From positions 2,046,001 to 2,110,000 of the forward strand of contig VRMN01000001.1 of assembly GCA_008690995.1 (NCBI GenBank): 64,000 nucleotides of DNA, written 5' to 3'. Of the stretch, positions 6,606-61,061 are shown one piece after another. Source of the DNA: Porphyridium purpureum (taxonomy: Eukaryota). Below the pieces are notes generated by a model, which was given only the letters and a program-made list of their open reading frames with translations, was not told where the DNA came from and did not search any database. Position 1 is the first letter of the stretch, and each line of letters opens with the position of its first letter. The translations under genes and the position numbers were made by a program.

Positions 6606-8759
6606 ATGAAGAAGACGAAGGAGAAGGACTCAAGCATGTCGGCGCCGCCTGCGCGACGGCGCACGCAGGGTCGTATTCCTTTGCCAAGCAGCACTCCGAC
6701 GGGTCGGCGCTCGTCGGCAGGGGGTGCATTTTTCAAGGATCGAACGGACGCGCGCATGCAGGATGTGGGTACCCCGAGTAAGAACAAGGACGGGTCCGGC
6801 ACGCCTAGCAAGACCAAGCCGTCTGCAATTCTCGCCAGGCGGAGACGCATTCTCTTACGCTCTTTTACCGCTGCGCTTGTGGTGCTTGCCGTTGTTGCGA
6901 TAGCACTGCTGATGAGGGGCAAGGAGGGGCTTTTGAGGTGGATTCCGCGGCCACGTGGGGTACGGAATACGGGAGATGCGACGTCACCAAAGATCGCGGA
7001 TGCGTCTGACCCGTCGACGGTCAGTACGTTTGGTGTGACTTTGGCTCCGTCGCTCCCAGCAGATCCGCCAGACACGGTAGACATTTTGGCAGCTGAGCAC
7101 ACACCGACAGATGCGCCAAAGTCAGAAGACGTCGTGTACAGGGAAGAAGCGCGCCCGCAGGAAGCTACGGCCACAAACGAGTCCCTCAGCAGCAGTTCTC
7201 AGCAGAAGCAAACGCGTGATGAAATAGATCAAACGATGGCCGCAACGACGCCGCCTCATGTCCAGGGAAGAGCGGATGAAAAGGGATTTGTGCCACCGGT
7301 ACATTTGAGTCCCACGGCGGTAGATGATGGTAAGGTTGGTGGTCTTACTTCAAAGTTTGAGGCCGTGCCTGGACTCTTTGAGAGTGACGACCAGGTTTAC
7401 TTGATCAACACATTCGAGAACTATCTGTCGCATCACGTGATCACAAAGGATGTCTTGCTTCGTGCCAATGCAGATCTAGATGCTCCGGATGGTCTCTTTC
7501 TCTTCTCGGACTCGATGAAGGACCCCTTGTGTGGTGGCGGACGCGCTCCTATCTACTTGAAGAACAATTGTGCGAAGGAAAAGGAGACAGCATGGAAAGA
7601 AGGTCATCTAGACTCACGACGTACCTTGTCGGCGTCTGAGATTTCTGCTGTGCGATCTGGCAGCCAGGGTGTCTTCAATGTGATTCAGGGTACCACGCTT
7701 CTTATTGTTCTCGACCAGTCGTGCACAAACGTGGCACACTTTGCCGGAAAGATTTTGTACGTGCATCACATGTTGACAAACAAGGCTGTGTACCGTCTAA
7801 AGGACATTAAGACCGTTCTCGTGGTTGCTGACAAGAAGTCGTACCCAAAATTGACAAACAAGGCCGCATGGCAAAGCCTCGTCCTCGAATCGATTTTATG
7901 GCCGCACAGGCCCGTGTTCAACACGTCAGCCGACCTGTTCGGGCCGCCGAAGGGCGGTGTTCGTGCATTCGTGTTTGAGGATATGCAAGCGCTCACAAGC
8001 CTTGGCTGGATTTACTTTGAGCAGCTGGTTGGCGTCGGAATTCTCAAGGGAGAGTTTTTCTTTGAGGATCACGAACTCCCACCGCGTCCCAAATTGTATC
8101 GTGCACCATTCCCGAGCAGCACGGTAAACGTTTCCTATGATTCGATCGTGTTCAGGGAAAAGGTACGGTCGGCATTGGGCAGGCGGGCCGGAGGAAAACG
8201 CAAAGAGTTGTTGGGAGTACAACGTATGGAGCGTCGAGTCTTGCTGGTTGACCGTCTCGGTACACGTCGTGTCTTTTCACAGGACACAAAGACTGTGTTT
8301 ACTAGTCACATGCGCTCCTGGGCCGAGAGGCGCGGTTATGCGTTCGAGATAATATCCTTCGAAGGACTAGATGCGGACGCGCAAGCCGAGCTCGTGGAGT
8401 CCGCCGCCATGCTGGTCGGACTGCATGGTGCGAATCTGGTCAACTCCATCTTTATGCCGCCTCTGGCTGTGCTGTTGGAGATCTTCCCGTATGTATTCTA
8501 TCACACTATGTACCGTGAAGGCGGGAAAGCCTCACTCAAGTATTTTTCGTATCAACCGGACCATGGGATAGACTGGCCGGGGGTTGAGAACTATCAGTCG
8601 GGCATACAGTGCGCGCGCGCGAACAATGACTGCAAACTGTTCTACCGCGACGGCATCGTCGAACTGAACCAGGTGGATTTTAAGAACCTGGAAAGGATCT
8701 TCACCGAGGCATTCGATTATTTAGATAGCCTCGAGGCAGCGAGTCGCCATGCCAACTAA
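6606..8759 (+). CDS. Type II membrane glycosyltransferase, GT61-like
   Basis: Basic tail, one TM helix and a stem region, then NVAHFAG..., VLLVDR..RRV and LVGLHGANLVNSIFMPPLAVLLEIFP (GT61 HGAxLxN motif). Confidence 0.82.
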   Translation: MKKTKEKDSSMSAPPARRRTQGRIPLPSSTPTGRRSSAGGAFFKDRTDARMQDVGTPSKNKDGSGTPSKTKPSAILARRRRILLRSFTAALVVLAVVAIALLMRGKEGLLRWIPRPRGVRNTGDATSPKIADASDPSTVSTFGVTLAPSLPADPPDTVDILAAEHTPTDAPKSEDVVYREEARPQEATATNESLSSSSQQKQTRDEIDQTMAATTPPHVQGRADEKGFVPPVHLSPTAVDDGKVGGLTSKFEAVPGLFESDDQVYLINTFENYLSHHVITKDVLLRANADLDAPDGLFLFSDSMKDPLCGGGRAPIYLKNNCAKEKETAWKEGHLDSRRTLSASEISAVRSGSQGVFNVIQGTTLLIVLDQSCTNVAHFAGKILYVHHMLTNKAVYRLKDIKTVLVVADKKSYPKLTNKAAWQSLVLESILWPHRPVFNTSADLFGPPKGGVRAFVFEDMQALTSLGWIYFEQLVGVGILKGEFFFEDHELPPRPKLYRAPFPSSTVNVSYDSIVFREKVRSALGRRAGGKRKELLGVQRMERRVLLVDRLGTRRVFSQDTKTVFTSHMRSWAERRGYAFEIISFEGLDADAQAELVESAAMLVGLHGANLVNSIFMPPLAVLLEIFPYVFYHTMYREGGKASLKYFSYQPDHGIDWPGVENYQSGIQCARANNDCKLFYRDGIVELNQVDFKNLERIFTEAFDYLDSLEAASRHAN

Positions 8760-10126: not shown

Positions 10127-10530
10127 CCTGACCAGCGCAGCCTCTGCCCTTTCAGTGAGACAGCGACGCTGGAGGGTTTCCAAACCATGCAGTTCCCAAA
10201 TCTTTGTGCCTCTTCGACTTGTCGCGCGCTTTTTGGGTGCTTGACCGGGCAGCAGCGCAAACTAGGCAAAGCCAACAGATACAAGACCCCGACCACATTT
10301 GAAAGACGATGGGGTACTCAGTCAAAGGCGTGGATGTCAAACGCGGAACGCGACAGCCCGCAGCGTATAAAATGGGGCGTTGCGTCGCGTTGACCCCATA
10401 CCCACGCGCTAGAGGAACGCGAGCATTGTGAGATTTGGTGACGGTATCATCGGCGCCAGGTGACCTGCGGGAGCTTTGTTACAGACAGCAGTCAACTTCG
10501 TGAATGTTTCAAAACAGCACAAGGATAGAG

Positions 10531-11946
10531 ATGTGGTGCCGTTGGCTCGTGGTGCTCGGCTTGGTATGGATGCTCGCGAGGCAAACGGCAGTGACAGCGT
10601 TGCCGATTGACGCGAGCATTGCGCAATTCGACAGTGATGACTGGATGCAGGCGCATCCTCGAGCGCATTCGCCATCTTCGCAGTCCTCATTCAGTTGTGT
10701 CCCACTATTCTCAGAGTGCGGGATTGAGATGATTTCATCCGAGTGTGTGGACCTCAAGCGAGCTGCGCACGCGGACGGAGAATGCGAGCCTCTCCACATG
10801 TCATTCTACGGACACCGTCTGCAGGAAGCCAAGCTAGCATCCGAGAACGCCGCAGTTTTTGTTTCAAATTACCTCTTCACGCCGCTCACGGAGGTGGACA
10901 CCGTGGTGCCGCGGTTTTCGAGTACATTTTTCAGACTGTCGAACGAACAAGACGAGCAGGGCGTCAGGTGGACATGTCTGAGCACGGAACCCACGTTTGG
11001 AAATCAGCATCAAACACTCACGGGTCAATGCCTAGCATTGTTTTTCTCAGAATTAGCCGTGGCTGATGAAAAGGGTGAGCTACGCACAATAGAATTCTCA
11101 CCAACGGGACCCAGGTCCAACTGCGTCGTGCTCCGCGCGTGTGATGACGAAACTACAGACCCAACCGAAACACCTATGGTAGACCTGTCCGAAACGCCCA
11201 TGGCGGATACGCCTGGTCCAGTTGTCACGGATGCTGCGGCTTCAACTGCAACCGAGCCGTCGCCGGAGCCTTATAAATCTGACGAGCCGACGTCCTCCCC
11301 CACTCTTACGTCTGAAGGCATGAATTCCGGGGAAGCAACGATTTCAGGCGCGTCTGGAGACAGCTGTTTTCCGGCTAACGCATTGGTCCAGGTACGCGAC
11401 GCAGATGGAACAATCAGGTCCACAAGGATGAGTGAGCTGCAAATCGGCGACCACGTCATTTCTGGGCAGTCAGGACCAAACCTGAGGACAAGCCAGGTAT
11501 ACATGTTCGGCCACGCGGACGATAGCATCATCTCGTCCTTCCTTCGATTTTCCCTCATTGCTACGGGCGGAGATTTTCCGGCGTCGCAGCTGGTCATGAG
11601 CCCGGGTCACTACGTGTATCTGGATTCGGACAAGTTCATCCCGGCCCGGTCTGTTCGGTTGGGAGATTGGCTTGCACCGCACTGGATTGTGAGCAACATT
11701 TCAGTAGTCGTCGAACGGGGCCTCTACAATCCTCATACGACGGATGAACGACTCATGGTGCACGGTGTGGAGGTATCTAGCTTTACCGAGAGTGCCCGAC
11801 CAGAGATTGCGGCGTGGCTTTTGCTTCCTCTGCGTTTCCTATTTCACGTTTCTCATGGATCCGTGGCCGTTCGGACGCTCGACTTTGCACGTCCTGTATT
11901 GCTGCATCTGCGAGATCTGTTTCGAGTCGGGAGCAGCGCAGCCTAA
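10531..11946 (+). CDS. Secreted Hedgehog/intein (Hint, Hog-type) domain protein
   Basis: Signal peptide (MWCRWLVVLGLVWMLARQTAVTA), Cys-containing N-domain, Pro/Thr/Ser linker, then S|CFPANALV..MSELQIGDHV..LVMSPGHYVY..ARSVRLGDWL..RGLYNPHT..LMVHGVEVSSFT and a hydrophobic tail. Confidence 0.9.
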   Translation: MWCRWLVVLGLVWMLARQTAVTALPIDASIAQFDSDDWMQAHPRAHSPSSQSSFSCVPLFSECGIEMISSECVDLKRAAHADGECEPLHMSFYGHRLQEAKLASENAAVFVSNYLFTPLTEVDTVVPRFSSTFFRLSNEQDEQGVRWTCLSTEPTFGNQHQTLTGQCLALFFSELAVADEKGELRTIEFSPTGPRSNCVVLRACDDETTDPTETPMVDLSETPMADTPGPVVTDAAASTATEPSPEPYKSDEPTSSPTLTSEGMNSGEATISGASGDSCFPANALVQVRDADGTIRSTRMSELQIGDHVISGQSGPNLRTSQVYMFGHADDSIISSFLRFSLIATGGDFPASQLVMSPGHYVYLDSDKFIPARSVRLGDWLAPHWIVSNISVVVERGLYNPHTTDERLMVHGVEVSSFTESARPEIAAWLLLPLRFLFHVSHGSVAVRTLDFARPVLLHLRDLFRVGSSAA

Positions 11947-36358: not shown

Positions 36359-39300
36359 ATGAGCGACGACGCCGCTGGTGCTGGCTCCAGTGGGCCAGGT
36401 AGCCCGGGGCACTCCCCGCCCGACTCGGGCGACAGGAACGGATCACTGGTGCGAAGCCTCCGCGACACCGGGGTTTTGGCGCCAGCGTGGTGGCCCCAAA
36501 CCTTGAGAATCCATGATGAGGTCGGCGACCTCTTGGAGATGGCAGCAGCCTCGCCTAATGATTATATCGAGATGCTCATGGTGGAACGGATTGTTACCAT
36601 CGAGTGGTTGACAGCGCGTGGGGGCCCCGTCTCCATCGCGGCGTGGGTCAACTTTTGCCGTGAGCGAGGCATCCCAAACTTTGAGCCGGGCGTTAGCGTC
36701 CGCGCCTCATTTCAGCGTTTCACAGTGCATTCCGTTGACGACGTAGTGCATGACAGTAACGCCTCGCCAGTGACACCATCTGTAGAGCGCTTTGTAGATC
36801 GCGGGGTGCCTATGCACTTAATCGCTCCTGTGAATCGATCCGAGGCAGCATCTCATTCTCCTCCGGCGTCGCGCGCTGAACAAACAAGCCCCGAGGCGCC
36901 TGCAGTACAAGCCCCCGCAAGCGTGCCTGGTGCGCGCGATTTTATTCGCTACATGTCAGAAGTACGCTTCTCGGGTAGCCCGAACACAATTCCATTCCGA
37001 AGGTGGCGCAACCGCCTCGAGTCGGCACGGGAAATGTTCGGCGTGAACGATGCGCAGGTCGCGCGCGCCTTGCCACTCATCACGAGTGGTCAAGCTGAAT
37101 CTCTCTTGTACGCCAAAGCGAGAGAGCTACCGAGACTCAGCCAGAAGCTTTCGTTGTTAGAGAAGTCGTTCGCAAGTGCCGCTGCCATGACCGCACAAAA
37201 GCAGGCCTTAAAAAGCGCGAATTTCGCCGTCTTCGTGAGTAAGGAGTCGACGCGTGTTCTCGCGTTTGACGCGCTTGTTAGGCACGTGGAAGACGTTTGC
37301 TCATTCCTTGGATACCCGTACGATGAGCCTGGCCAGGTGGCCGACCACGTAATTCAAGCGATGTACGCGTCGGATTATGCACCAACGCTCTCTCTTGCAC
37401 TCATTGGGACGCGCGATGGAGCGGATGTCATTGCGGAACTCCGTGTATTCCTGCACGAGCTGGACGCGCGTAATGGACGCTTGCTACCGGCAGCAACAGG
37501 CATCTACTACTCACGCCCTTCCGCTTCGTTTCAACACGCTCCACAGCCAAGCGCTCGTCCTCCTCAAGGCCTCCCTTATCGTCCACCCACATCGTCATAT
37601 CGACCTCCTGTACGGAACCGTTCAGGAAACGAACGAGGAGCGCAAGTTTGTCAGCATTGTGGAAGGATGGGACATTCCCGAGAAATATGTTGGTCGCGAA
37701 ACCCCCCTGCCGTTGGTCTTGTGCTCGATGAAGTACAGGAGGTACACGACACGACAACAAGTGGACACCGAGTCGCCTTTGAAGTTGAACCCGAAGGGGA
37801 CGTGCAGCAGATTGGCGTTGAAGGGCCAGATCCGCGGGAGCCTGAGCAAGATTTTGGCGGGAATCTCGTCGCTTTCGCGTATGACGTCTACAGAACGCAG
37901 CATGTTTTGCCCACGGTGCCGCGCTGGCGCGTCTTCGTAGATTCCGGAGCTGGGCGTTCGGTGGCTGGCTGGCGCGCATACACGGAATACTGTCGGGCTC
38001 AAGGGAAAAGTTCGAAGTTGGCTCCGGCGGGCGGAGAACAACCCGTAAACTGGGGTGGCCCATTGTCGCCCGTGGGCGTCGGTCGAGTCCGCATTCCGGT
38101 CGGGAAGGATCACTTCGTCGAGTTTAATCCCGTTGTCGTCGACAATGATGACCTGCCAATTCTATTTGGTGGACAAGATCAAGACCAGCATCATTTTGAT
38201 CTCATCCGCACTACTGATCCACCGCGCTTGAGCTCTCCGTCCTTTTCTGTGCCGCTGCGTCGGCTCCATTCTGGCCACCTAGAAGTCGTTTTTCCGTCTC
38301 AAGGCGGCGCACCAAGTCTGTTGGATACTGCGCTTTACACTTCTGATGAGTTGATGACTTTACACAAACGATTTGGTCATGCATCAGCACACAAGGTTCG
38401 AAAGATTATCAACCTCGCAGGCGAGCGCATCGAACCCAGCGAGTTCAGGAAGTTTGAAGACGACGCCAGAAACTGCACTGTGTGTCAGTGGTATCAAGGT
38501 CGTCGGACAACGTACAAGGTTGCAGCGGAAATTAACGTCGAATTCAATCATGTGGTTCAGATGGATTTTGTCTTTATCGTGCACAATGGCCGGAATATTA
38601 AGGTCCTGCACGCTGTTTGTGCGGGCACTAAATGGAACGCCGCCATCGAGTCCACCGATGGGACAGCGCCGGGTGTATTCAGCGATTTTTTTCGTATGTG
38701 GGTCTCGATATTTGGTGCGCCGCATCGCCTGGTAGTCGACCGGGAGAAAGTTCTTGACTCGAATGACTTGGAAGTCATGTTCCTGAACGAGGGGTGTATC
38801 CTTGATCCAGTGGCCATCGAGTCCCATTGGAGCGTCGGGTACGTGGAACGACATCACGAGCCCCTGCGCAAGGTCTGCTCCCGGATTATGTTGGAAGATC
38901 CTAGCGCACAGTTCGCGGATGTGCTGTCTTTTGCCTTGCGTGCAATCAATACAACCACAGGTCCAGAAAACATCATCCCCTCCTTGTTGGTATTCGGTAC
39001 TATCCCGAGGATTCATGTACGCTCGGAGGCGGCGATTCACGATTCGCGAGAAAGCCAGGAGAGGCGCATTACGGCGATGCTGGTAGCACGCAACGAGTAC
39101 GAAGTTTTAGTCTCGAAAATGAAACTCGCAGCGGCGCGCAGAACACGAACGCCGCAGTATCCGGGCGACAACGACGCGTTGGTACCGGGTGCAGCCGTTC
39201 TCGTGCGTCGTGAAAACGACCGTGCTTGGACCGGTCCATATGTCTGCCACGGGGTTGATGGCACGCGCGCGCAGGTGTCGGTCTTAATGCCCTCACAAGT

Positions 39301-40879
39301 CAGCAGCGACCGGGCACGTGTGGCTGCGTTTAGTGTGAACAATGTCAAGTTATACCGGGCACCCACGTCGCCAGCATTGATTTGCCTCTGGGCACAAACG
39401 TGCACGAGCGCGGAGGACGTGTTGTGGGAAAACGCGGATCGGAAAGAAATGCAAGGAATTCTCGCGAGAGATGTCATCCGGCCGGTAGACCGGGTGCCGA
39501 AGGGTGCAACCATACTAGGCAGTCGTTTTGAACGTGTCGTTAAGGTTGACGGCACCCGCAAGTCTCGGTTCGTGGTCCAAGGTTTTCGCGACGTTGGAGC
39601 GGCCAACGTCAATGTGCATTCTCCCGTTCTCTCAAAATACTCACTGCGCCTGCTCATTTCGGTGGCCCGTATCCGCAACAACACTGTCGAATATCGAGAC
39701 TACGCGCAAGCGTATCTACAGAGTGACTTCCCCCTCGCGCGTGCAGTCTACTTGCGCTTGAAACCTGAAGTTCGCCAACTTTTATCTACCCTCACTGATC
39801 TTCCGGACTATCCAGAATACGTGCACGTTGTGCGACCGCTTTATGGCTTAACAGAATCGGGAACGTATTGGTATGCAACGCTGCGCAAGGCGTTTGAGCG
39901 GGAAGGCTTCAAGGTTGCGGCGTTGGACGCATGCGTAATGTATCTGCACGGCCACGGTGCCGTGGGTATCTTGGTCGACGACACAATTCTCGTCGGGGAT
40001 GACTTTGCCAGGCGGGCAGAGTCTCGAGTTTCGGCTCGTTATGACAACAAGGGCTTGTCCGCACCTCCGTTTTCGTTCAATGGTTTCCGGGTCCTGCGAC
40101 ATGGGGACAATTACACGCTTGATCATCACAAATATGTTCGCGACAATTTATCAACCAGAGTCGTACGAGACTACAAAGAATTCCAGCAAGTTCGCGGCCA
40201 GTTGGCCTATGTGGCTACAGGTACGCGGCCTGACATTCTGTGCGCCGTGGCCCAGCTATCCCAAGTGACGACGACAACGTTTACGCATGAGCATGCGCGT
40301 CTGCTTCGAGCAGCTTGTCGCCAAGTGACAGATTTCCCGCGCTGCTTGTTCTTCAATGATTTGCGCAGCCCATTTCGGCTCAGAGTCTACGCAGACGCAA
40401 GTTACGCGTCCAACCCAGACCACACTTCACAAATTGGCTTCGCAATCTTTCTCGGCGACGATTCTGAAAATGCGCACTTGATACACGCGCAGTCAAACAA
40501 AAGCAGGCAAGTGGCGCATTCAGTTTTGAGTGCCGAACTCTTGGCGCTTTGCATCGCTTTTGACTTTGCCGAAGCCGTGCAGCTCGAGCTGCTGGCGCAC
40601 GGACTCAGTGTGCCCATTGTCCTTGCTACAGATAGCAAGCAGATATTCGACTCAATAACGAAAAGCTCGGTGCTTGCCGAAAAGAGACTGATGGTCCGCA
40701 TGCTTGTTTTGCGCCAGGGCCTCGAAGACTTGCGCATCTCTCAAGTGCTCCATGTGCCTGGCGCTTCAAATATCGCAGACGCGCTTACGAAGAACCGTGC
40801 CTGTGCACTGTGGGATCGCTTCTTGCGAGAAGGCAAACTTGCGCACGTCCATTCTGCGTCAGTATATCTTGTCGAATGA
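36359..40879 (+). CDS. Gag-Pol polyprotein (1506 aa): capsid, CCHC knuckle, protease, integrase, RT, RNase H
   Basis: CQHCGRMGHSREIC; FVDSGAGRS; HKRFGH..CTVC with QMDF/VVDRE/VERHH; KSRFVVQGF, AYLQS, PLYGLTESG, LVDD; YADAS, SAELLA, TDSK, NIADALTK. Confidence 0.96.
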   Translation: MSDDAAGAGSSGPGSPGHSPPDSGDRNGSLVRSLRDTGVLAPAWWPQTLRIHDEVGDLLEMAAASPNDYIEMLMVERIVTIEWLTARGGPVSIAAWVNFCRERGIPNFEPGVSVRASFQRFTVHSVDDVVHDSNASPVTPSVERFVDRGVPMHLIAPVNRSEAASHSPPASRAEQTSPEAPAVQAPASVPGARDFIRYMSEVRFSGSPNTIPFRRWRNRLESAREMFGVNDAQVARALPLITSGQAESLLYAKARELPRLSQKLSLLEKSFASAAAMTAQKQALKSANFAVFVSKESTRVLAFDALVRHVEDVCSFLGYPYDEPGQVADHVIQAMYASDYAPTLSLALIGTRDGADVIAELRVFLHELDARNGRLLPAATGIYYSRPSASFQHAPQPSARPPQGLPYRPPTSSYRPPVRNRSGNERGAQVCQHCGRMGHSREICWSRNPPAVGLVLDEVQEVHDTTTSGHRVAFEVEPEGDVQQIGVEGPDPREPEQDFGGNLVAFAYDVYRTQHVLPTVPRWRVFVDSGAGRSVAGWRAYTEYCRAQGKSSKLAPAGGEQPVNWGGPLSPVGVGRVRIPVGKDHFVEFNPVVVDNDDLPILFGGQDQDQHHFDLIRTTDPPRLSSPSFSVPLRRLHSGHLEVVFPSQGGAPSLLDTALYTSDELMTLHKRFGHASAHKVRKIINLAGERIEPSEFRKFEDDARNCTVCQWYQGRRTTYKVAAEINVEFNHVVQMDFVFIVHNGRNIKVLHAVCAGTKWNAAIESTDGTAPGVFSDFFRMWVSIFGAPHRLVVDREKVLDSNDLEVMFLNEGCILDPVAIESHWSVGYVERHHEPLRKVCSRIMLEDPSAQFADVLSFALRAINTTTGPENIIPSLLVFGTIPRIHVRSEAAIHDSRESQERRITAMLVARNEYEVLVSKMKLAAARRTRTPQYPGDNDALVPGAAVLVRRENDRAWTGPYVCHGVDGTRAQVSVLMPSQVSSDRARVAAFSVNNVKLYRAPTSPALICLWAQTCTSAEDVLWENADRKEMQGILARDVIRPVDRVPKGATILGSRFERVVKVDGTRKSRFVVQGFRDVGAANVNVHSPVLSKYSLRLLISVARIRNNTVEYRDYAQAYLQSDFPLARAVYLRLKPEVRQLLSTLTDLPDYPEYVHVVRPLYGLTESGTYWYATLRKAFEREGFKVAALDACVMYLHGHGAVGILVDDTILVGDDFARRAESRVSARYDNKGLSAPPFSFNGFRVLRHGDNYTLDHHKYVRDNLSTRVVRDYKEFQQVRGQLAYVATGTRPDILCAVAQLSQVTTTTFTHEHARLLRAACRQVTDFPRCLFFNDLRSPFRLRVYADASYASNPDHTSQIGFAIFLGDDSENAHLIHAQSNKSRQVAHSVLSAELLALCIAFDFAEAVQLELLAHGLSVPIVLATDSKQIFDSITKSSVLAEKRLMVRMLVLRQGLEDLRISQVLHVPGASNIADALTKNRACALWDRFLREGKLAHVHSASVYLVE

Positions 40880-51827: not shown

Positions 51828-53486
51828 ATGGCGAGGATGGTCGTCGCGGCGGTGGCCGTTATGGCTGTGCTGAGCGTCGCGCTCGCACAGTTCATCCCAG
51901 ACGTGGACATCACGTGGAAGGTCCCCATGACGCTTGCGGTGCAGGACTTGAGCATTTTCACGGGCCCCAACCAGTTTGGGCGCGGGATTCCGAGCCCCTC
52001 GGCGATCGGCGGTGGAAACGGGCTTGACATTGTCGGCGGCGGTGGGTCCTTCTACATCTCCCCGACAGGCGGGCAGGTTCAATATTCTCGCGGGTCGAAC
52101 AACTTTGGTAATCAGGTTGCGTTCACCCGTGTCCGCAAGAACGGAAACAACGAGTCAGACTTTGCAACCGTGTTTGTTGGCGGCACCACCCCACCGTTCG
52201 TCATTGTTGGTGACAGCACCGAGAACGAGGTGTCCTTCTGGACAAACAACAAGGTCGTTGTGAACAGCCAGGGCTTCATTCCTCCGAATGGTAACTCGGC
52301 CGGTGGAAATGGCCAGTATACGTTTGTGAACGGAATCACGGGAACAGCAGGAGCTCCGGTTGGTGGCACCGTCATCCGTCAAGTTTCCGCGTGGCGTGAG
52401 ATTTTCAACACGGCAGGAAACTGCGTGAAGTCCTTTGGGCTTGTGGTTCGCGGCACTGGAAACCAAGGTCTCGTCCAAGGCGTTGAGTATGATGGGTACG
52501 TTGCTATTGACTCCAACGGTTCATTCGCCATTTCTGGATACTCTCCCGCTGTGAACAACGCACCGGGCTTTGGCAAGAACTTTGCGGCCGCTCGTACCGG
52601 AAACTTTTTCGCCGTATCGTCCGAGAGTGGGGTGATCGTTATGTCGATTCCAGTCGACAACGCCGGGTGCACTCTGTCCTTCTCAGTGGCCTACACGATT
52701 ACTCCCGGCGCGGGCCGCGTATCGGGTGTCTCTTTGGCGCAGGACAATGAATTCTACGCCGCTGTTGGTATTCCCGGAGCGGGCCCAGGTCAGGTGCGTA
52801 TCTACCGTCTTGACGGTGGCGGAGCCACGACGCTCGTGCAGACACTCTCCCCGCCAGATGACATCCCGGAGCTCCCGATTGTCGCAAATCAGCGATTCGG
52901 AGAGACGGTTCGCTTTGGCGCCAACTCGGAAACCAACTACGTGGCAGTGGGTTCGCCAGGGTACGCTGCGGAAGGTCTGGCTCTGTTTTACACGGCCGAG
53001 CCAGGACTTACCCCGAACGACCCAGATGAGGGCCTGTTGACGTTGCTCGCGTACAGTAACAGCTCGGAAATCCTAGCGAATGGTGGCCTTGGCGAGTTCA
53101 TGACCGCCAGCAACTGTCGTCAGTTCGTGTTTGGTGAACCGAGTGTCAACAGCGTCGTGATCTTCTTGGCAAGCATCGGAGCGTACTATGAGGACTACTG
53201 CACGTGCGAGCAGGAGAACATTTTCGATCAGGGCATCATGTTCCCGGTTCCAAACTTCCCTGGTGAGTCCCCGACGACATGCCGCTCAAGCATTTATGAG
53301 TTCCGCTTCAACTGCTTGATGGAAGGTGCCCCAAGTATCTGCACTTACTCTGAGCGCCCGACTTATGAGTGGACCGAAGAGGTTGTTGACCCAGACAACA
53401 CGCCATGCGAGCTGGTGTCGCGCATCCAGAGGCGGCTTTCGCAGAATAACTGTTTCCAGGACTACGTGACCCTGCAGGTCGTTTAA
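51828..53486 (+). CDS. Secreted cell-wall glycoprotein, Porphyridium 66-kDa glycoprotein family
   Basis: Signal peptide MARMVVAAVAVMAVLSVALA|QFIPDVDITWKVP recognised from memory as this protein; Gly/Asn-rich beta region; sequons NES, NGS, NSS; Cys-rich C-terminus. Confidence 0.85.
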   Translation: MARMVVAAVAVMAVLSVALAQFIPDVDITWKVPMTLAVQDLSIFTGPNQFGRGIPSPSAIGGGNGLDIVGGGGSFYISPTGGQVQYSRGSNNFGNQVAFTRVRKNGNNESDFATVFVGGTTPPFVIVGDSTENEVSFWTNNKVVVNSQGFIPPNGNSAGGNGQYTFVNGITGTAGAPVGGTVIRQVSAWREIFNTAGNCVKSFGLVVRGTGNQGLVQGVEYDGYVAIDSNGSFAISGYSPAVNNAPGFGKNFAAARTGNFFAVSSESGVIVMSIPVDNAGCTLSFSVAYTITPGAGRVSGVSLAQDNEFYAAVGIPGAGPGQVRIYRLDGGGATTLVQTLSPPDDIPELPIVANQRFGETVRFGANSETNYVAVGSPGYAAEGLALFYTAEPGLTPNDPDEGLLTLLAYSNSSEILANGGLGEFMTASNCRQFVFGEPSVNSVVIFLASIGAYYEDYCTCEQENIFDQGIMFPVPNFPGESPTTCRSSIYEFRFNCLMEGAPSICTYSERPTYEWTEEVVDPDNTPCELVSRIQRRLSQNNCFQDYVTLQVV

Positions 53487-53900: not shown

Positions 53901-56177
53901 TTACGTCTCAATCGTCAGACAGCATTCCCTCACTCCCCGACAAGGGTCCTTTCCTAGAAAGTCTTGTCTCGATTTAAAGTAGAAGTCATCCCAGAAACGC
54001 TGATCAAAGTCAAAAGAGGTTCGATCCGCTCGCTGCCAATTCTCCTGAACGCGCCGCTGGAGGTCCGGCACCACACGGGTTGCCGGGCTCGAGCCCAGTG
54101 GGATATTGCACGAAGGATCCACCTTGTGGCCCAACCACGTTTCAAAGCCCAGAGCCTCGGCAAGTTCGACGGCCTGCACGTGCATGAGCTCGGCCTCCTC
54201 GAATGGTACCTTCACGCTTTTCCGCTTCAAAAAATGCGCCGTGTGCAACCAGCCCCACCCAACTTCGTCGGGCCGCACAATATTCTTCCTGTTGTCCTGC
54301 GCCTCGCTGCGGAAAGCCAAATGCCCAAGATATCCTCCTGCTTTGATGGACGCGGGCAGTTTCTTTTGCGTATCAAAACAGTGTTTTCTGGTCTTGAGTT
54401 CCAGCACGCTAACTTGTTCGAATTCCGGGCGCTGCACAAAGTCTACCAGCTTTTCCGACGAATTTTTTGAGATGAACACTTCGTCCACGTCAAATAAAGC
54501 TACCCAGTCGTACTTGTACCTGAGCGTCCAAAAGCAGTCATTCACGGCAGTGTACTGCGAGCGGTCGTACGGAATACCGCACAAAGCGTGCGCCCAATTC
54601 ACGATTGTGACCTTGCCTTGCTTCACCAAGTCACCAACGAAAGCTTCCGTGAAGTCATCGTTCTCATTCTTGTAAATGTACACGTGATCTACCCCGTGGG
54701 CAATGTAGTATGACAACCACTCCATCAAGCGCCAGCGCTGGTTGCGTAGGTAAAGACACACTGCAAGCGTGTCGGGTTCCTTCACTCGAAGAGCGCGCTG
54801 GAGCAAGTGGGCGACTGGTTCACCACTGGAGTGTATCGGCTCATTGAGGCATAGGCCAATCGGTCGGATCCGCTGGCTGACGCCATGAACAAAGAGCTCG
54901 GCAGTGACTCTGAAGTTCTCTTCCAAATACTTCTCTGTGGCCGACTGGTTTCGGATCGGGCATGTGATCACAATGTTTCTTGTCGTTCCCGGTACATACC
55001 CGTTCTCGCATCGAAACTGCTCGTTGGTTTCATAAACCTTGATGGCAAGCGTCAAATTCTGCACAATGTCCTTTCCCAAATGTAGATTTTGCTCCAAGTC
55101 TGCAAACAACGCTGCTTCGTATTTGACGCTCGTATCTCGATAGGCACGCAGCACATGGGCAGAGAAAATTGCCCCAATAGGTACTTGACCAATATTGCGC
55201 TTTCCGATCGCGCCGAATTGCCACGAGCCGCAATACTTTCTGTGAATAAAGTCCGGCGCGCCTAACGGAGCAGGTTTGGGATGCGGACTGCTGGTTGTCT
55301 GATCCACGGTAGACCGAACTGGTTGTGCTCGTGCCGAGGTAGCCTCCCTTGCTTTTGATTCACCTCCTGACGGACGCCTTGAATCAGAATTCACCGCGGC
55401 AACGGCAGGGGCACCCGAACCAGTCAGTGTCTTATGGGGTGCCGGTACTGGTTCTCGTACAGATGTTTCTATTTTTTCAGCAGCTGGTCGTCCTGGAGCA
55501 GGGCCTGAGTGCCGGCGAGGGTCAGGAACTGCTTCCTGTTCCTTACTCTCATTCTTTGGCGGTGTTCTTGATTCATACGTTTCATGTCCTTCACTGGCCG
55601 GCCTCGATGGAGGGCGATCAAAAGCTGGATCTGGAGCCTGAGCTGCAGCCAAAGCCGAGTTCGGTGCCGTGACCGGAACCGGAGCCTTCGTCTGCGCAGG
55701 ATGCCCAGCCCAGAGTCCTTCTGATTCCCTAGAGGCATGCCTCGGTTGGGCCGGTGGGCTGGCTGAGGTGGGAGCAGTAGCCGTAGCTGGAGCCTTACTT
55801 GCAGTTATTGCATGTTCTCTTGCCTCAGATGATGAAGGCTTCGTTTGAGAAGGCGCGGCAAGCTCGGGAGAACCAGACGTCGACCGCTCCACATGCTGTG
55901 CGTCGGACACCGACGGCCGATCAAGTCGCGCTGAATTTTCCGATACCGCACCTTTCTCTGCTGTGGTGCCATCACCAGTCGACGCATCAATACTACCAAT
56001 GCGGGATTGGTTCTCCAACAGGGCGTCCACCGCGAGGCGTTCCCGCGCAGCCGCGTTCAGCGCTTTTGCCTGCTGCGGCGCATTCCGAATGCTAGCGATG
56101 GACATCAGCCACAGCAGGACGCACAGTATGCCCACCGCCACCAATAGCTGCGTCCTAGCATGCTTTCTGGCAAGCAT
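53901..56177 (-). CDS. Type II membrane glycosyltransferase, GT92/DUF23-like (GT-A fold)
   Basis: TM anchor, long Pro/Ser/Ala stem, then LAVCLYLRN..LMEWLSYYIAHGVDHVYIY..Q..AVNDC..WVALFDVDEVF..KNIVRP..LH. Confidence 0.85.
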   Translation of the reverse strand: MLARKHARTQLLVAVGILCVLLWLMSIASIRNAPQQAKALNAAARERLAVDALLENQSRIGSIDASTGDGTTAEKGAVSENSARLDRPSVSDAQHVERSTSGSPELAAPSQTKPSSSEAREHAITASKAPATATAPTSASPPAQPRHASRESEGLWAGHPAQTKAPVPVTAPNSALAAAQAPDPAFDRPPSRPASEGHETYESRTPPKNESKEQEAVPDPRRHSGPAPGRPAAEKIETSVREPVPAPHKTLTGSGAPAVAAVNSDSRRPSGGESKAREATSARAQPVRSTVDQTTSSPHPKPAPLGAPDFIHRKYCGSWQFGAIGKRNIGQVPIGAIFSAHVLRAYRDTSVKYEAALFADLEQNLHLGKDIVQNLTLAIKVYETNEQFRCENGYVPGTTRNIVITCPIRNQSATEKYLEENFRVTAELFVHGVSQRIRPIGLCLNEPIHSSGEPVAHLLQRALRVKEPDTLAVCLYLRNQRWRLMEWLSYYIAHGVDHVYIYKNENDDFTEAFVGDLVKQGKVTIVNWAHALCGIPYDRSQYTAVNDCFWTLRYKYDWVALFDVDEVFISKNSSEKLVDFVQRPEFEQVSVLELKTRKHCFDTQKKLPASIKAGGYLGHLAFRSEAQDNRKNIVRPDEVGWGWLHTAHFLKRKSVKVPFEEAELMHVQAVELAEALGFETWLGHKVDPSCNIPLGSSPATRVVPDLQRRVQENWQRADRTSFDFDQRFWDDFYFKSRQDFLGKDPCRGVRECCLTIET

Positions 56178-56370
56178 GGCTGCTGTCGAGATGCGTGTCT
56201 CCTTCTGCTCAGTGGTCACAGCTTCGTCGCGTGTTCGTGTCCTCAAAGTTCTTTGTGAAAAAGTCGCCCATTTTACTACATGAATTCGATGGCCTTTGTC
56301 GAGCATTCAGCAGCCATTCCCAACCACGGGACTGCCCATCTTGCTCGGGCAGCCGCGCGTGCCAGAGACG

Positions 56371-59202
56371 ATGACGATGCGGCGCGGCGCGAGGAATCAG
56401 TGTGATCTCGGCATCAGCTTGGTCCGCGCGGTTGCCGTGCTGTTTTGCGTGGTATGGTGCTTGCATACGTCTGCTGAGCGAACAGTGGGTCAGACGGTGG
56501 AACGGCCTGACCCGAGCGAACGAGAGATGATTCAGCCATGGAATCGAGGCAAGCACAACGACGCCCGGTCCAGCAGTCTTTTGCAGCCTCGTCAAATGGG
56601 TCTGCGGGAAAAACGGGAGATCCGGTTTCTACAACATGCAGTCACGAGAATAGAAGCAGCAAGCGAGGCAACCAAGACCGTCAGTTGGCGCCGACAAAAC
56701 AATCCTTACGCCCTTCGCCCTGCCAACCAGGTGAATTTGGCCATGGCCGTGTGCAGTTCGAAAGTGTGGAATCTGGCCGAGGTAGCGCTCAAAAGTATGT
56801 TTCTGTTTGCCAACACGGACCGCCACTATATTATGTACATGTTCGCAAATGATGGCGATGTGGAGAAGACCACCAACGAGTTCGAACCTTTCATTGGAAA
56901 TCTTTTGGATCAGTTGCCTAATCTTTCCTTCGAGCTGCACGTGGTGCCGGCGTCGAGCGACAAGGAGACAAACTTTTTCAAGCCATGCTCCGGACAACGC
57001 TTGTACATACCCCACGCCTTGCCGCACGTGAACAAGCTCTTGTACCTGGACGCCGACCTCTATTTTCTCGACGATGTATCCAAGCTGTACGATATGTTTC
57101 GCAGCTGGACTCCTGACATGTTGCTCGGAATGAGCCCGGAGAAATCGGACAAGACGCAGGCATACCTAAAGTATTGCAACGCCGGTATAGCCATGATGAA
57201 CTTGGAAGGGCTTCGGAAGTTTGATTTGCTAGCCTTCTCAAAGCATCTCTATACGAGCGGCGCGAACTTACCGTTCTTTGATCAAGACATTTTCAACCAT
57301 GTGTGCGCCGATTCGAAGCCTCCAATGTCGAGATGTTTTCATATGCCCTGTAGCTGGAACTACAGAACAGACCACTCCTGGACACCCGGGTGCTCACACA
57401 CCGTTAGTCGTGGTGGTAAGGTTTCTCTCATCCATGGAAACAGGGCCCAGTTTCTCAAGGAAGACGTTTCAGGACCTCTACCGCATCGGGTCCGCCCTTA
57501 TTCTCGGCTTGCCAAAAAGCTGTGGGAGGTTCTTCTCACGTGTCACCCGCTTCTCGAGTGCCCGTCAGGCCTCATGATTGCAGCTCGGGATGCCGTGATG
57601 AACGAGGCAGACCCTTGCGAGTTCGATGATCCATACGTTTTGGAGCAACCAGGTGCAGAATGGAAGCCGACGACGACGTGGAACGTGAGCGATCCGGCCG
57701 ACACACATTTGCTCTGGAAGTTGGCGAATGGCACGTGTGTAAACAAGCGCCTCTTCAATCAGTTAAAAGCGCAGGTCGACCAATATCCGCGCAGGCTCGC
57801 AGCGATCAGAGAGGCAGACGATGGCATGAATCTTCGCGTTTCGAGCATGATACGACGTGATCAGTGCGGTTCATGGCAGTACGGACCGATCGGAAAGCGC
57901 AACATTGGGCAGGTACCTATTGGAGCCATCTTTTCTTCACACGTGCTTCGTGCGTACAGAGACACCAGCGTCAAGTATGAGGCAGCCCTTTTCAGTGACC
58001 TTGAACAGAATTTGCACCTTGGCAAGGACGTGATTCAGGACTTGAGCCTTGCAATTTGGATTCACGAGACGAATGAGCAATTTGTGTGTGACAATGGGTA
58101 TACTGCGGGAGTGACGCGTAATGTTGTGATTACTTGTCCCATCCGTCGCGACTCACCCACGGAGCGACACTTGGAGGCTCACTTCCGAGTGACGGCCGAT
58201 CTCCTTGTCGTCGGTACCAACCGGCGCATCAAGAACATTGGGCTATGCTTGAATGAGCCTATCCGAGCAGCTGTCGAGCCTACGGCGCAGGTGCTAGAGC
58301 GCGCATTGCGCGAAAAAAAACCTGAAAAGCTCGCAATGTGTGTGTACGTGCGCAATCAGCGCTGGCGACTGATGGAATGGTTATCCTTTTACCTTGCGCA
58401 AGGTGTGAATCACATCTACATCTACAAGAACGAAAATGATGATTTCACGGAATCGTTTGTGAGCCATTTAGTGAAACAAGGCAAAGTCACGATCGTGCAT
58501 TGGGCGCACACATGGTGCGGCGTGCCGTACGATCGCTCGCAATACACTGCCGTGAATGACTGCTTCTGGACGCTTCGCTACAAATACGACTGGGTGGGAT
58601 TATTTGACGTAGACGAACTTTTTGTCTCGAAAAAGGAGTCGGAAAAGCTCGTAGACTTTGTGGAGCGACCCGAATTCGAGCAAGTTTCTGTGCTGGATCT
58701 GAAGACCAGAAAGCACTGCTTCGACACGAGCAAAAGTTTACCGTCAACCATCAAAGAAGAAGGATATTTGAGGCACCTGGCGTTCCGCAGCGAGAAGCAG
58801 GACAACAGGAAGAACATTGTGCGACCGGACCGAGTCGATTGGGGCTGGTTACATTCCGTCCGTTCCTCGACTGGGAGGAGCAGGAAGGTTTCATTTGATG
58901 AAGCCGAGCTCTTGCACGTGCAGGCGGTCGAACTTGCCGAAGCGCTCGGCTTTGAAACTTGGCTGGGCCACAAGGTAGATCCTTCGTGCAATGTCTCCCT
59001 GGGTTCGAGCCCGGCAACACGCGTTGTGCCTGACCTCCAGCAACGCGTACGACAGAACTGGCAGCTGGCCAACCGCTCTTGCTTCCAGCATGACCAGAAG
59101 CATTGGGACATCTACTACTTCCAGCAGAACCGCGACTTTGAGGGCACGCAAGGTTGTTTGCACCGCTCATCTCGTGAATGTTGCTTGTCCATCGAAACCT
59201 GA
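56371..59202 (+). CDS. Two-domain glycosyltransferase: GT8 (GXYLT-like) fused to GT92-like
   Basis: TM anchor; FFKPCSGQRLYIP..LLYLDADLYF..NAGIAMMNL..FDQDIFN..CSWNYRTDH..LIHGNR (GT8); then CGSWQ..LMEWLSFY..FDVDELF (GT92). Confidence 0.9.
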   Translation: MTMRRGARNQCDLGISLVRAVAVLFCVVWCLHTSAERTVGQTVERPDPSEREMIQPWNRGKHNDARSSSLLQPRQMGLREKREIRFLQHAVTRIEAASEATKTVSWRRQNNPYALRPANQVNLAMAVCSSKVWNLAEVALKSMFLFANTDRHYIMYMFANDGDVEKTTNEFEPFIGNLLDQLPNLSFELHVVPASSDKETNFFKPCSGQRLYIPHALPHVNKLLYLDADLYFLDDVSKLYDMFRSWTPDMLLGMSPEKSDKTQAYLKYCNAGIAMMNLEGLRKFDLLAFSKHLYTSGANLPFFDQDIFNHVCADSKPPMSRCFHMPCSWNYRTDHSWTPGCSHTVSRGGKVSLIHGNRAQFLKEDVSGPLPHRVRPYSRLAKKLWEVLLTCHPLLECPSGLMIAARDAVMNEADPCEFDDPYVLEQPGAEWKPTTTWNVSDPADTHLLWKLANGTCVNKRLFNQLKAQVDQYPRRLAAIREADDGMNLRVSSMIRRDQCGSWQYGPIGKRNIGQVPIGAIFSSHVLRAYRDTSVKYEAALFSDLEQNLHLGKDVIQDLSLAIWIHETNEQFVCDNGYTAGVTRNVVITCPIRRDSPTERHLEAHFRVTADLLVVGTNRRIKNIGLCLNEPIRAAVEPTAQVLERALREKKPEKLAMCVYVRNQRWRLMEWLSFYLAQGVNHIYIYKNENDDFTESFVSHLVKQGKVTIVHWAHTWCGVPYDRSQYTAVNDCFWTLRYKYDWVGLFDVDELFVSKKESEKLVDFVERPEFEQVSVLDLKTRKHCFDTSKSLPSTIKEEGYLRHLAFRSEKQDNRKNIVRPDRVDWGWLHSVRSSTGRSRKVSFDEAELLHVQAVELAEALGFETWLGHKVDPSCNVSLGSSPATRVVPDLQQRVRQNWQLANRSCFQHDQKHWDIYYFQQNRDFEGTQGCLHRSSRECCLSIET

Positions 59203-59648
59203 CCGATGAGCGGGCGCTCTCAGCAGCCGAGACGTTTACTGTACGTCACGGAAATGGCATCTTCCATAGAGAAACTCGTCGTGTCGCCCTCGTTCGGGCA
59301 TGAGCCTCCGTGGCCTTGAGCACGATACACACAGCGCCGCCATGTGCCAGCGCGTCCGGCGCGGGCCGTTCGGATTGAGGTAAAGAGTTCCCTTTGATGT
59401 TCATGGAAACTTGTGTGCCGCACGTGCGCTTGTGTGTGAGTCGTGCAAGGTTGTACTGGGGAACCCCATGTGCCTTTGCGCACACCCCTCGTGGCGTCGC
59501 GGCCTTTCCGCGCTCAGCCTCTTTCTCGACCGCCATCAACAAATGCCTGCATCACTGTACCCCGCATGGACTGTACTTGCGCGTGTGGCGCGTGGCGCGT
59601 GTCCGAAGTTGGCCAGTGGTCGCGCCTGTGGCTGCTGAGGAAAGTGCC

Positions 59649-61061
59649 ATGAACGCGACACGAAGGGAGGCGGACAAGGCTCAAGCCGCGCTGGGCCGCA
59701 TGCTCCGGCAGCCGCGCGTCCTGCTTGCGGTCGTCGCGGCCGGCGTCATGTTCACGCTCAGCATGATCATGTTGGCCGCGTCCATGGGCGGAGCCGGACC
59801 GCGCGGCGCGCAATCGCAGGGCGATGTCGCGCGTGAGAAGACGGGAGCTCCGCTCTTGGGTAACATATTCTCGTTTGGAGCGGATGTGCGCGTGATGAAG
59901 CAGCATGTAGCGGTCCAGCCAATTGCTGGCGCCCAGGACGCGTCCAGGGGCGTCGCGTGGCGGCGAAAACAGATTCCTGCCGCAAAGCAGGTCGATCTTG
60001 CTCTTGCAGTGTGTAGCTCAGGCGTATGGAATCTCGCTGAGGCCGTGTTGAAAAGCATGTTCTTGTTTGCGGCCACCGACCGTCACTATGTGCTCTACAT
60101 GTTTGTGATTGACGGCGATGTGGCCAAAACGGCTGATCACTTTGAGGCGGTCATCGAGGAGTTTTTGGATGAAAAGCCGCTTCTGTCCTTCGAGCTTCAG
60201 GTGCTCCCGGCCTCAAGCGACAAGGAGACAAATTTCTTCAAGGTCTGCTCTGGCCAGCGGTTGTACATCCCGGACGCCCTGCCACATGTCGACCGTTTAC
60301 TATACCTCGATGCCGACATCTTGTTCCTCGACGACGTATCTAAAATGTGGGATATGTTTGATCAGTGGACGCCAAACATGCTCTTTGGGCTGAGCCCGGA
60401 GAAGTCCGACGAAGTGCCTACTAATTTGCAGTACTGCAATGCCGGCATTGCAATGATGAACTTGAAAGGATTGCGATCTTTCGGACTTCTAGCGTACGCC
60501 AAGGACCTGTACACACGCAAGGTGCCCCTGCCATTCTTTGACCAGGACATTTTTAATCGGATTTGCGCTGAATCGGATCCAGCTTGGTCAAGATGTTTCC
60601 ACCTGCCATGCAGCTGGAATTTCCGCACGGACTACATTTTCACGCCCGGATGCTCCCACTCCAGCCGACCAGGTGGCAAGATCTCCCTGATCCACGGAAA
60701 TCGCGTTCTTTTTCTGAGAGAAGAGGCCACGGGTCCTCTGCAGCACCGCACTCGCGCGTTCTCATCCCTGGCGAAGAAATTGTGGGAGGCACTAGCTGCT
60801 TGCCGTCCGCTCAGTTCGTGTGCGGGGAAGATGCTCAGTACCGCAGAAGAGCACGTGCGGAATGAACGAGAGCCGTGCGAGTTCAAGAGCCCGTACTTCC
60901 CGGATCTGGACGCCAAGCCGACAACCGGATGGACCATTCCGAAACCAGCCGATGGCAATGTGTTGTGGAAATACGCGAACGGGACGTGTGTGAATTCTCG
61001 CTTGGCGCTTCAACTCAAGGAGGCTGTTGACGCCTCGAGGGCGAAGCTAGAGAAGAGCTAA
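59649..61061 (+). CDS. Type II membrane glycosyltransferase, GT8 (GXYLT-like xylosyltransferase)
   Basis: TM anchor; FFKVCSGQRLYIP, LLYLDADILF, NAGIAMMNL, FDQDIFN, CSWNFRTD and LIHGNR motifs. Confidence 0.9.
   Translation: MNATRREADKAQAALGRMLRQPRVLLAVVAAGVMFTLSMIMLAASMGGAGPRGAQSQGDVAREKTGAPLLGNIFSFGADVRVMKQHVAVQPIAGAQDASRGVAWRRKQIPAAKQVDLALAVCSSGVWNLAEAVLKSMFLFAATDRHYVLYMFVIDGDVAKTADHFEAVIEEFLDEKPLLSFELQVLPASSDKETNFFKVCSGQRLYIPDALPHVDRLLYLDADILFLDDVSKMWDMFDQWTPNMLFGLSPEKSDEVPTNLQYCNAGIAMMNLKGLRSFGLLAYAKDLYTRKVPLPFFDQDIFNRICAESDPAWSRCFHLPCSWNFRTDYIFTPGCSHSSRPGGKISLIHGNRVLFLREEATGPLQHRTRAFSSLAKKLWEALAACRPLSSCAGKMLSTAEEHVRNEREPCEFKSPYFPDLDAKPTTGWTIPKPADGNVLWKYANGTCVNSRLALQLKEAVDASRAKLEKS

Follow-up and report, generated by a model that had tools for sequence, protein, structure and literature searches.

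The way in which Porphyridium starts and polymerises its sulfated exopolysaccharide, a product in commercial use, is described as an open question (PMC12843361). A 64,000-nucleotide stretch of the Porphyridium purpureum genome (assembly GCA_008690995.1, contig VRMN01000001.1, positions 2,046,001 to 2,110,000 of the forward strand; hereafter the window, to which all coordinates refer) raises the question of whether a single protein chain could take two steps of such a synthesis. Gene F (56371..59202, plus strand; 943 amino acids, intron-free; POR5159..scf295_1, KAA8498422.1, contig_3446.8) joins a half of glycosyltransferase (GT) family 8 to a half of family GT92, and a preliminary description had likened it to the animal copolymerase LARGE. 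At a probability of about one half, we read F as a predicted Golgi-anchored enzyme that would carry out two coupled, consecutive steps on the growing exopolysaccharide chain, within a repeat of more than two sugars.

The fusion is real, in one frame and one transcript. Its 943 codons hold no internal stop, and Pfam places both families above their cut-offs within the same frame, as had been claimed (PF01501, GT8, residues 210-332, 47.3 bits, cut-off 24.3; PF01697, GT92, residues 653-856, 100.6 bits, cut-off 23). Both DxD motifs are likewise intact (YLDAD from residue 225, at 57043; FDVDE from residue 745, at 58603). The 2013 assembly also encodes 943 amino acids here, with 99.6% identity. Seven different sequencing runs were mapped on the region: a 14.7-kb DNA contig of run X10 covers F end to end, and the linker between the halves is crossed by contigs of four further runs (X16, 56830-57981; X3, 56337-58238; X13, 56940-58577; X18, 57509-59311). 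The preliminary description had named two separate transcripts as the outcome that would speak against it. Instead, the junction lies within RNA contigs and is crossed by stranded reads, with a sense depth of 6.5-8.5 over the linker in raw reads of run X23 (thin, at 0.6, in X24), no splice joint appears within F in any RNA run, and sense reads drop near 59260-59370, ahead of the next gene. The database model of F has 968 amino acids and begins at a TTG (56296), 25 codons upstream of the ATG at 56371; because RNA-like contigs begin at 56334-56347, the ATG is favoured. Run X3 is tagged 'DNA?', yet its contigs begin and stop at the ends of genes and vary in depth from 9 to 1,057, as expected of RNA.

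The first half carries a GXYLT-like GT8 core with a GT-A fold (56728..57450, plus strand; residues ~120-360), marked by the D227/D229 DxD, N270-x-G272, D304-Q305-D306, N330-x-R332 and H355. All positions near-invariant among 72 relatives are kept (C206, R210, D227, D229, E257, N270, G272, D304, Q305, D306, N330, R332 and H355), as are the signature motifs of the glucoside alpha-1,3-xylosyltransferases GXYLT1/2 (KPC-x-x-QRL, C-x-WN-x-R-x-D and HGNR), and databases name paralogues of F 'glucoside xylosyltransferase'. In animals the GXYLT substrate is O-glucose on epidermal growth factor (EGF) repeats; no such substrate is obvious in P. purpureum. GXYLT enzymes are EGF-specific (PMC10709319), and F differs from GXYLT1/2 in its GT92 fusion and in an extra C-terminal helical part, a Cys-bearing extension (57451..57780, plus strand; residues 361-470) common to the neighbouring gene B. 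The model of this half (predicted local distance difference test, pLDDT, 84.5) finds LARGE1, XXYLT1, WbbM and LgtC as its top structural matches. Its nearest solved structure is the xylosyltransferase domain of LARGE1, and D227/D229, Q305 and H355 align with D242/D244, Q335 and H380 of LARGE1, residues named in PMC9746966. Identity to relatives outside Porphyridium is ~23-30%. GT8 enzymes retain the anomer (PMC9746966, PMC10709319), and as donor-facing residues do not correlate with the donor among GT8-related enzymes (PMC10709319), the donor of this half cannot be read from its sequence. Alignment and model together point to a member of the GXYLT/XXYLT1/LARGE xylosyltransferase group, for which UDP-xylose use and an alpha-1,3 product are predicted.

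The second half holds the GT92 GT-A core (58327..58938, plus strand; residues 653-856; D746-V-D748-E749, K814, H828 and H849), preceded by a predicted beta-sandwich module (57922..58290, plus strand; residues ~518-640) and followed by a Cys-rich C-terminal tail (58939..59199, plus strand; residues 857-943) common only to Porphyridium-type GT92 proteins. The sandwich superposes on the CBM95 N-terminal part of poplar GALS1, a module that the preliminary description had overlooked in taking this half for a bare GT-A domain. In alignment, D746, D748, E749, K814, H828 and H849 are identical in spinach GALS3 and poplar GALS1. Searched with the model of this half, Foldseek placed GALS1 first (E 4e-16; next family 1e-6), and VIA-align gave a Z of 21.2 over 335 residues (root-mean-square deviation 4.3; next structure Z 12.2), with model residues 29-409 (residues 518-898 of F, beta-sandwich included) aligned on GALS1 39-418. 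The nearest ESM Atlas clusters are GT92 as well (0.97); residues 495-648 alone gave a best score of 0.78, a lead only. Both proposed families, GT8 and GT92, are thus confirmed by Pfam and by fold. F shares with plant GALS1 (PDB 8d3t/8d3z) the two-module fold, the DxDE, the Lys and the two His, but differs in the Cys-rich tail, in the GT8 domain ahead and in sequence (12-15% identity in structural alignments).

GALS1 combines CBM95 with GT92 and uses a histidine as catalytic base (PMC11062476), and characterised GT92 enzymes make beta-1,4-galactoside products (PMC6646851). By sequence and model the second half of F would be GALS-like, with a UDP-galactose donor and a beta-1,4 product predicted, and its CBM95-like module, whose model confidence is low at the N-terminal edge, may bind sugar. 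Forming a beta-1,4-galactoside from UDP-galactose is an inversion. A GT2 label for this half was rejected: PF13704 (GT2-like) also matches (residues 661-760, 53.9 bits) and scores below GT92, PF00535 has no match at E 0.1, and other GT-A structures reach a Z of at most 12.2 against the 21.2 of GALS1. The supplements of PMC12843361 list POR5159 (contig_3446.8) as a carbohydrate-active enzyme (CAZyme) assayed by quantitative PCR, and the POR5159 primer given there has a single match in the window, at 58692-58712. One table of that paper labels the protein GT2 and another GT8, the text and supplement hold no match to 'GT92', and no discussion of two domains was found in the parts examined.

Between a predicted single N-terminal membrane anchor (56407..56463, plus strand; residues 13-31; hydropathy window 2.39) and the GT8 core lies a stem, a layout that we infer to be that of a type II Golgi protein. 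The linker (57781..57855, plus strand; residues 471-495) is absent from both neighbouring genes. Homology to the GT8 neighbour stops at residue 470, and homology to the GT92 neighbour sets in at residue 488. A linker of about 28 residues had been placed at 57781-57864 (residues 471-498), in agreement with this gap. That position stands, but neither GT-A core adjoins the linker, as the helical extension (residues ~361-470) lies on one side of it and the beta-sandwich on the other; the models suggest three folded modules rather than two. All four strain differences seen in the linker replace a residue, with no stop and no frameshift, and it looks like a free tether. Complex prediction with the two halves as separate chains, run without alignments, scored 0.00 twice and speaks neither for nor against their contact. 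Internal duplication of one half from the other was also considered and rejected (profile comparison probability 0.4%).

Each half also exists next door as a separate enzyme, a feature absent from the preliminary description. Gene A, a stand-alone GT92 (53901..56306, minus strand; POR5523, KAA8498421.1, contig_3446.7), lies head-to-head with F, is 73% identical to its residues 488-943 and has a stem of ~280 residues rich in Ala, Pro and Ser; its start is likely at 56177 (M44). Gene B, a stand-alone GT8 of 470 amino acids (59649..61061, plus strand; POR4276, KAA8498423.1, contig_3446.9), follows in tandem and is 63% identical to residues 88-470; the start of its protein is printed under KAA8498423.1 in the supplement of PMC12843361. 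In FastTree trees (104 rows for GT8 and 86 for GT92; domains of fewer than 170 or 150 residues left out), the GT8 half is sister to B (Shimodaira-Hasegawa, SH, support 96) and the GT92 half to A (SH 98), with the single-domain P. purpureum paralogues P0005 and P0006 branching outside these pairs. Because the flanking genes are the sisters of the respective halves, F most likely arose by local duplication of its neighbours and fusion of the copies. The event is old, since synonymous divergence (dS) from A is 1.63 (nonsynonymous divergence, dN, 0.19; ratio 0.11) and synonymous sites are saturated against B (proportion of synonymous differences, pS, 0.79; dN 0.28). A decayed GT8 domain in the long stem of A was rejected, as tblastx and blastn found nothing there that matches the DNA encoding GT8 in F or B. 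By protein matches, P. purpureum holds further GT92 paralogues (the P0006/P0010 set, KAA8499718 and the 125-aa fragment KAA8497251; P0006 at 48% identity) and further GT8 paralogues (the P0005/P0020 set, KAA8497707 and a 634-aa GT8 matching KAA8497965).

Both halves look functional from their pattern of change. Their branches are not long (0.32 versus 0.41 for GT8, 0.28 versus 0.20 for GT92). At least 31 strain differences were classed, after X10 indels and seven substitutions stemming from pieces of that run that belong to paralogues A and B had been dropped: 16 are silent and five replacing in the catalytic halves, against none and four in the linker and two and four in the stem, and none makes a stop. 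At family-conserved columns F equals its neighbour in 54 of 61 positions for GT8 and in 38 of 39 for GT92, which suggests that it repeats the chemistry of A and B.

The layout of GT8, CBM95-like module and GT92 is apparently confined to the P. purpureum lineage. A HMMER pass over 1.84 billion representative proteins (E 0.001) gave 2,554 matches; among the best 150 of these and the query, 100 matched in the GT8 part and 53 in the GT92 part; F alone matched in both. A Pfam scan of 45 of the best 150 (those long, multi-domain or close) found no second GT8+GT92 protein. In such a ranking a two-domain protein is expected high by its summed score, and relatives more than 50% identical may hide in clusters. 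A word-indexed protein search returned F and A only and missed P0006, and therefore argues only weakly for absence; the same kind of search with the GT8 part against shorter proteins gave B and P0005 only, another returned eight proteins with no new fusion, and two scans of metagenome contigs found no relative. The literature searched, whose coverage leaves out most subscription papers, held no Porphyridium GT8+GT92 enzyme, and on fused bifunctional GT8/GT92 proteins it gave nothing beyond one plant review whose passages on GT92 deal with GALS. The families were borne out, no second case appeared among the best 150 of 2,554 matches, and the earlier view of the architecture as uncharacterised holds in the searches run. 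Metagenome fragments (P0007, P0152-P0154 and P0024) share 46-51% identity with the GT92 half in its C-terminal part, Cys-rich tail included (P0007 51%, P0154 46%), and show that this subfamily also occurs in a relative. Four of the 45 scanned proteins fuse a GXYLT-like GT8 to GT90 (P0038, P0054, P0077 and P0118); unless they are gene-model artefacts, GT8 domains of this type have joined a different transferase in other proteins.

As the likeness to LARGE was the starting point, we compared F with other two-domain enzymes. LARGE1 and LARGE2, like F, have an N-terminal anchor, a retaining GT8 domain first and an inverting GT-A domain second. They pair a GT8 xylosyltransferase with a GT49 glucuronyltransferase and make matriglycan, whereas the second half of F is GT92 plus beta-sandwich by Pfam and fold, and LARGE1 reaches a Z of about 10 against it compared with 21 for GALS1. 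LARGE proteins form a dimer whose coiled-coil stem pairs active sites of opposite chains. By sequence and model F falls outside the LARGE family, with an independent origin by local duplication. Klebsiella WbbM makes an alternating galactan, and its partner domain, placed first, is GT111. WbbM (PDB 6u4b) resembles F in being bifunctional with two GT-A domains per chain, one of them GT8, and differs in being bacterial.

What would such an enzyme build? The exopolysaccharide consists mostly of xylose (Xyl) and galactose (Gal), at 41.6% and 40.3% (PMC12967132) or at 46% and 30% with 20% glucose (Glc; quoted in PMC12843361), and as F is predicted to sit in the Golgi with both transferases, action on this secreted matrix polymer is the most natural reading. 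The polymer is described as a two-fold helix with two chemical repeats and an incompletely known structure (PMC12967132); the acidic repeat, in which GlcA is glucuronic acid, is given as [beta-Xyl-(1->3)]m-alpha-Glc-(1->3)-alpha-GlcA-(1->3)-L-Gal (PMC12073197, figure legend). From family knowledge, the GT8 half would attach its sugar by a retaining reaction, most likely in an alpha-(1->3) link, the GT92 half would add the neighbouring sugar with inversion, and the beta-sandwich would hold the chain. With family-default sugars this would be xylose onto glucose, then beta-galactose; following the published repeat, the GT8 half would instead add glucose or glucuronic acid, in either case alpha-(1->3), and the GT92 half beta-xylose or L-galactose. 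Two links of that repeat are alpha-(1->3) and could be formed by a GT8 enzyme, one of them, like that made by LARGE1, being onto glucuronic acid; the Xyl-(1->3)-Glc link of the repeat is the GXYLT pair, but in beta form. A retaining GT8 enzyme would yield alpha-xylose, and this beta-xylose could not come from the GT8 half. Under either assignment of sugars F would perform two consecutive steps in building a longer unit and by itself would give no polymer. The steps would belong to a repeat or a side chain with three or more sugars, with other enzymes needed for the polymer, which is the weakest link of the proposal. A and B probably perform the two reactions of F as a separate, inducible pair, and F may be the constitutive form. 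In published RNA-seq (12 samples, four conditions) A and B rise jointly under nitrogen limitation (r 0.83), and the paralogue P0006 falls as they rise (r -0.65 and -0.79).

Several points weigh against this account. The activity of both halves is predicted from sequence and models, the GT92-half model is of moderate confidence (pLDDT 69.5, first 60 residues below 50), and no direct link ties F to the exopolysaccharide. F expression is nearly flat (9.6-10.0 in variance-stabilised, VST, units), lies outside the differentially expressed genes and correlates with A and B at r about 0.55 (p 0.06). Expression thus gives no direct tie of F to exopolysaccharide release, and the A-B correlation comes from four conditions without a genome-wide background. 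The acidic repeat constrains the product weakly, because it is a small part of a polymer with 3-4% glucuronic acid (PMC12967132). Porphyridium N-glycans bear xylose added by unidentified transferases (PMC12507850). Lastly, the trees are FastTree trees only, and fission of an older fusion is an alternative to fusion.

A self-sufficient copolymerase of the LARGE kind, in which each half accepts the product of the other to build an alternating alpha-Xyl/beta-Gal (or other two-sugar) chain of the neutral bulk, seems doubtful to us. LARGE1 has a GT8 domain followed by a second GT-A domain (PMC9746966), the same retaining-then-inverting layout, and among solved structures it matches the GT8 half best; the 41.6% Xyl and 40.3% Gal and the two-fold helix with two chemical repeats would also suit it (PMC12967132). 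The alternating Xyl-Gal product first proposed accords with these two sugars making up ~80% of the polymer, but not with a published repeat of four sugars with beta-xylose (PMC12073197), and the other composition (46% Xyl, 30% Gal, 20% Glc; PMC12843361) fits it less well. The GT8 half moreover bears the motifs of GXYLT, which by its database name xylosylates glucose rather than galactose, and the CBM95-like module recalls GALS1, a side-chain extender acting on a backbone (PMC11062476). We are similarly hesitant about the broader idea that F is an independently evolved, LARGE-like polymerase of a Xyl/Gal-rich backbone, with the A-F-B cluster as the pathway core. The cluster holds two retaining GT8 and two inverting GT92 domains, and the published repeat calls for two retaining and two probably inverting steps; four domains doing four different steps are counted against by the match of F to its neighbours at conserved columns.

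F might instead hold two active, uncoupled enzymes on one anchor, the fusion fixing their location and ratio, for instance for a GALS1-type galactan side chain and for glycoprotein xylosylation. Both halves do occur next door as stand-alone genes, the short linker tolerates replacements (four of four), GALS1 is a homopolymer extender (PMC6646851), and the N-glycan xylose would supply a second target (PMC12507850). We think this unlikely, given that the fusion was kept in frame until synonymous sites were saturated though both single enzymes were present, and that A and B co-vary as one pathway would. It is quite improbable that one half has no catalytic role and acts as a scaffold or as a module that binds the chain: F303 precedes the DQD motif at a position that is glycine in 53 of 72 relatives, and the GXYLT 'W-Y' loop is shorter, but stand-alone B and P0005 share both the Phe-type change and the shorter loop, metal-binding and catalytic positions are complete in both halves, and neither half shows accelerated change. 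An assembly or annotation artefact, from two merged genes or a paralogue-chimeric contig, can practically be dismissed: near paralogues of both halves flank F, but their DNA identity to the halves is just 68-75%, and the earlier assembly, the 14.7-kb DNA contig, contigs of four other runs and the stranded reads span the junction with no stop or splice.

Transcription around F is compact. The starts of A and F lie head-to-head about 190 bases apart (56177-56371), RNA-like contigs stop at 56173 on the A side and start at 56334-56347 on the F side, and the gap is likely a two-way promoter; the database models of both genes (801 and 968 amino acids) appear to start too far upstream. In both raw-read runs an antisense RNA (58640..59490, minus strand) overlaps F at its 3' end and lies across the F-B gap, with a depth that in places equals or exceeds the sense depth (20.7 against 6.6 at 58934-59187 in X24). 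It may begin at the B promoter and could set F against B. An antisense open reading frame of 177 amino acids (58578-59111) has no Pfam match and was treated as a shadow frame. The window as a whole is gene-dense, intron-poor eukaryotic DNA with a GC content of about 55%. It also encodes a 717-aa GT61 glycosyltransferase (6606-8759, plus strand), another candidate for matrix synthesis, a 480-aa protein (10504-11946, plus strand) of hedgehog-like layout, its N-terminus hydrophobic and its C-terminal module Hint, and a 1506-aa frame with an RVT_2 reverse transcriptase domain (36359-40879, plus strand), which we take to be a copia-type retrotransposon. Tail-to-tail with A lies a 552-aa protein (51828-53486, plus strand) with a signal-like N-terminus and no Pfam match at E 0.1; reads immediately 3' of its stop are very deep, about 1,000 in X23.

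Our analysis corrects the family label of F from GT2 to GT92 with a CBM95-like module, and gives an unsolved pathway a specific candidate enzyme pair whose two single-domain sisters serve as built-in controls. If F performs two steps only, it would still be a new dual-transferase layout. Were it to polymerise alone, it would be a second, independent eukaryotic answer to the problem that LARGE solves, and the first known polymerase of a red microalgal matrix polysaccharide.

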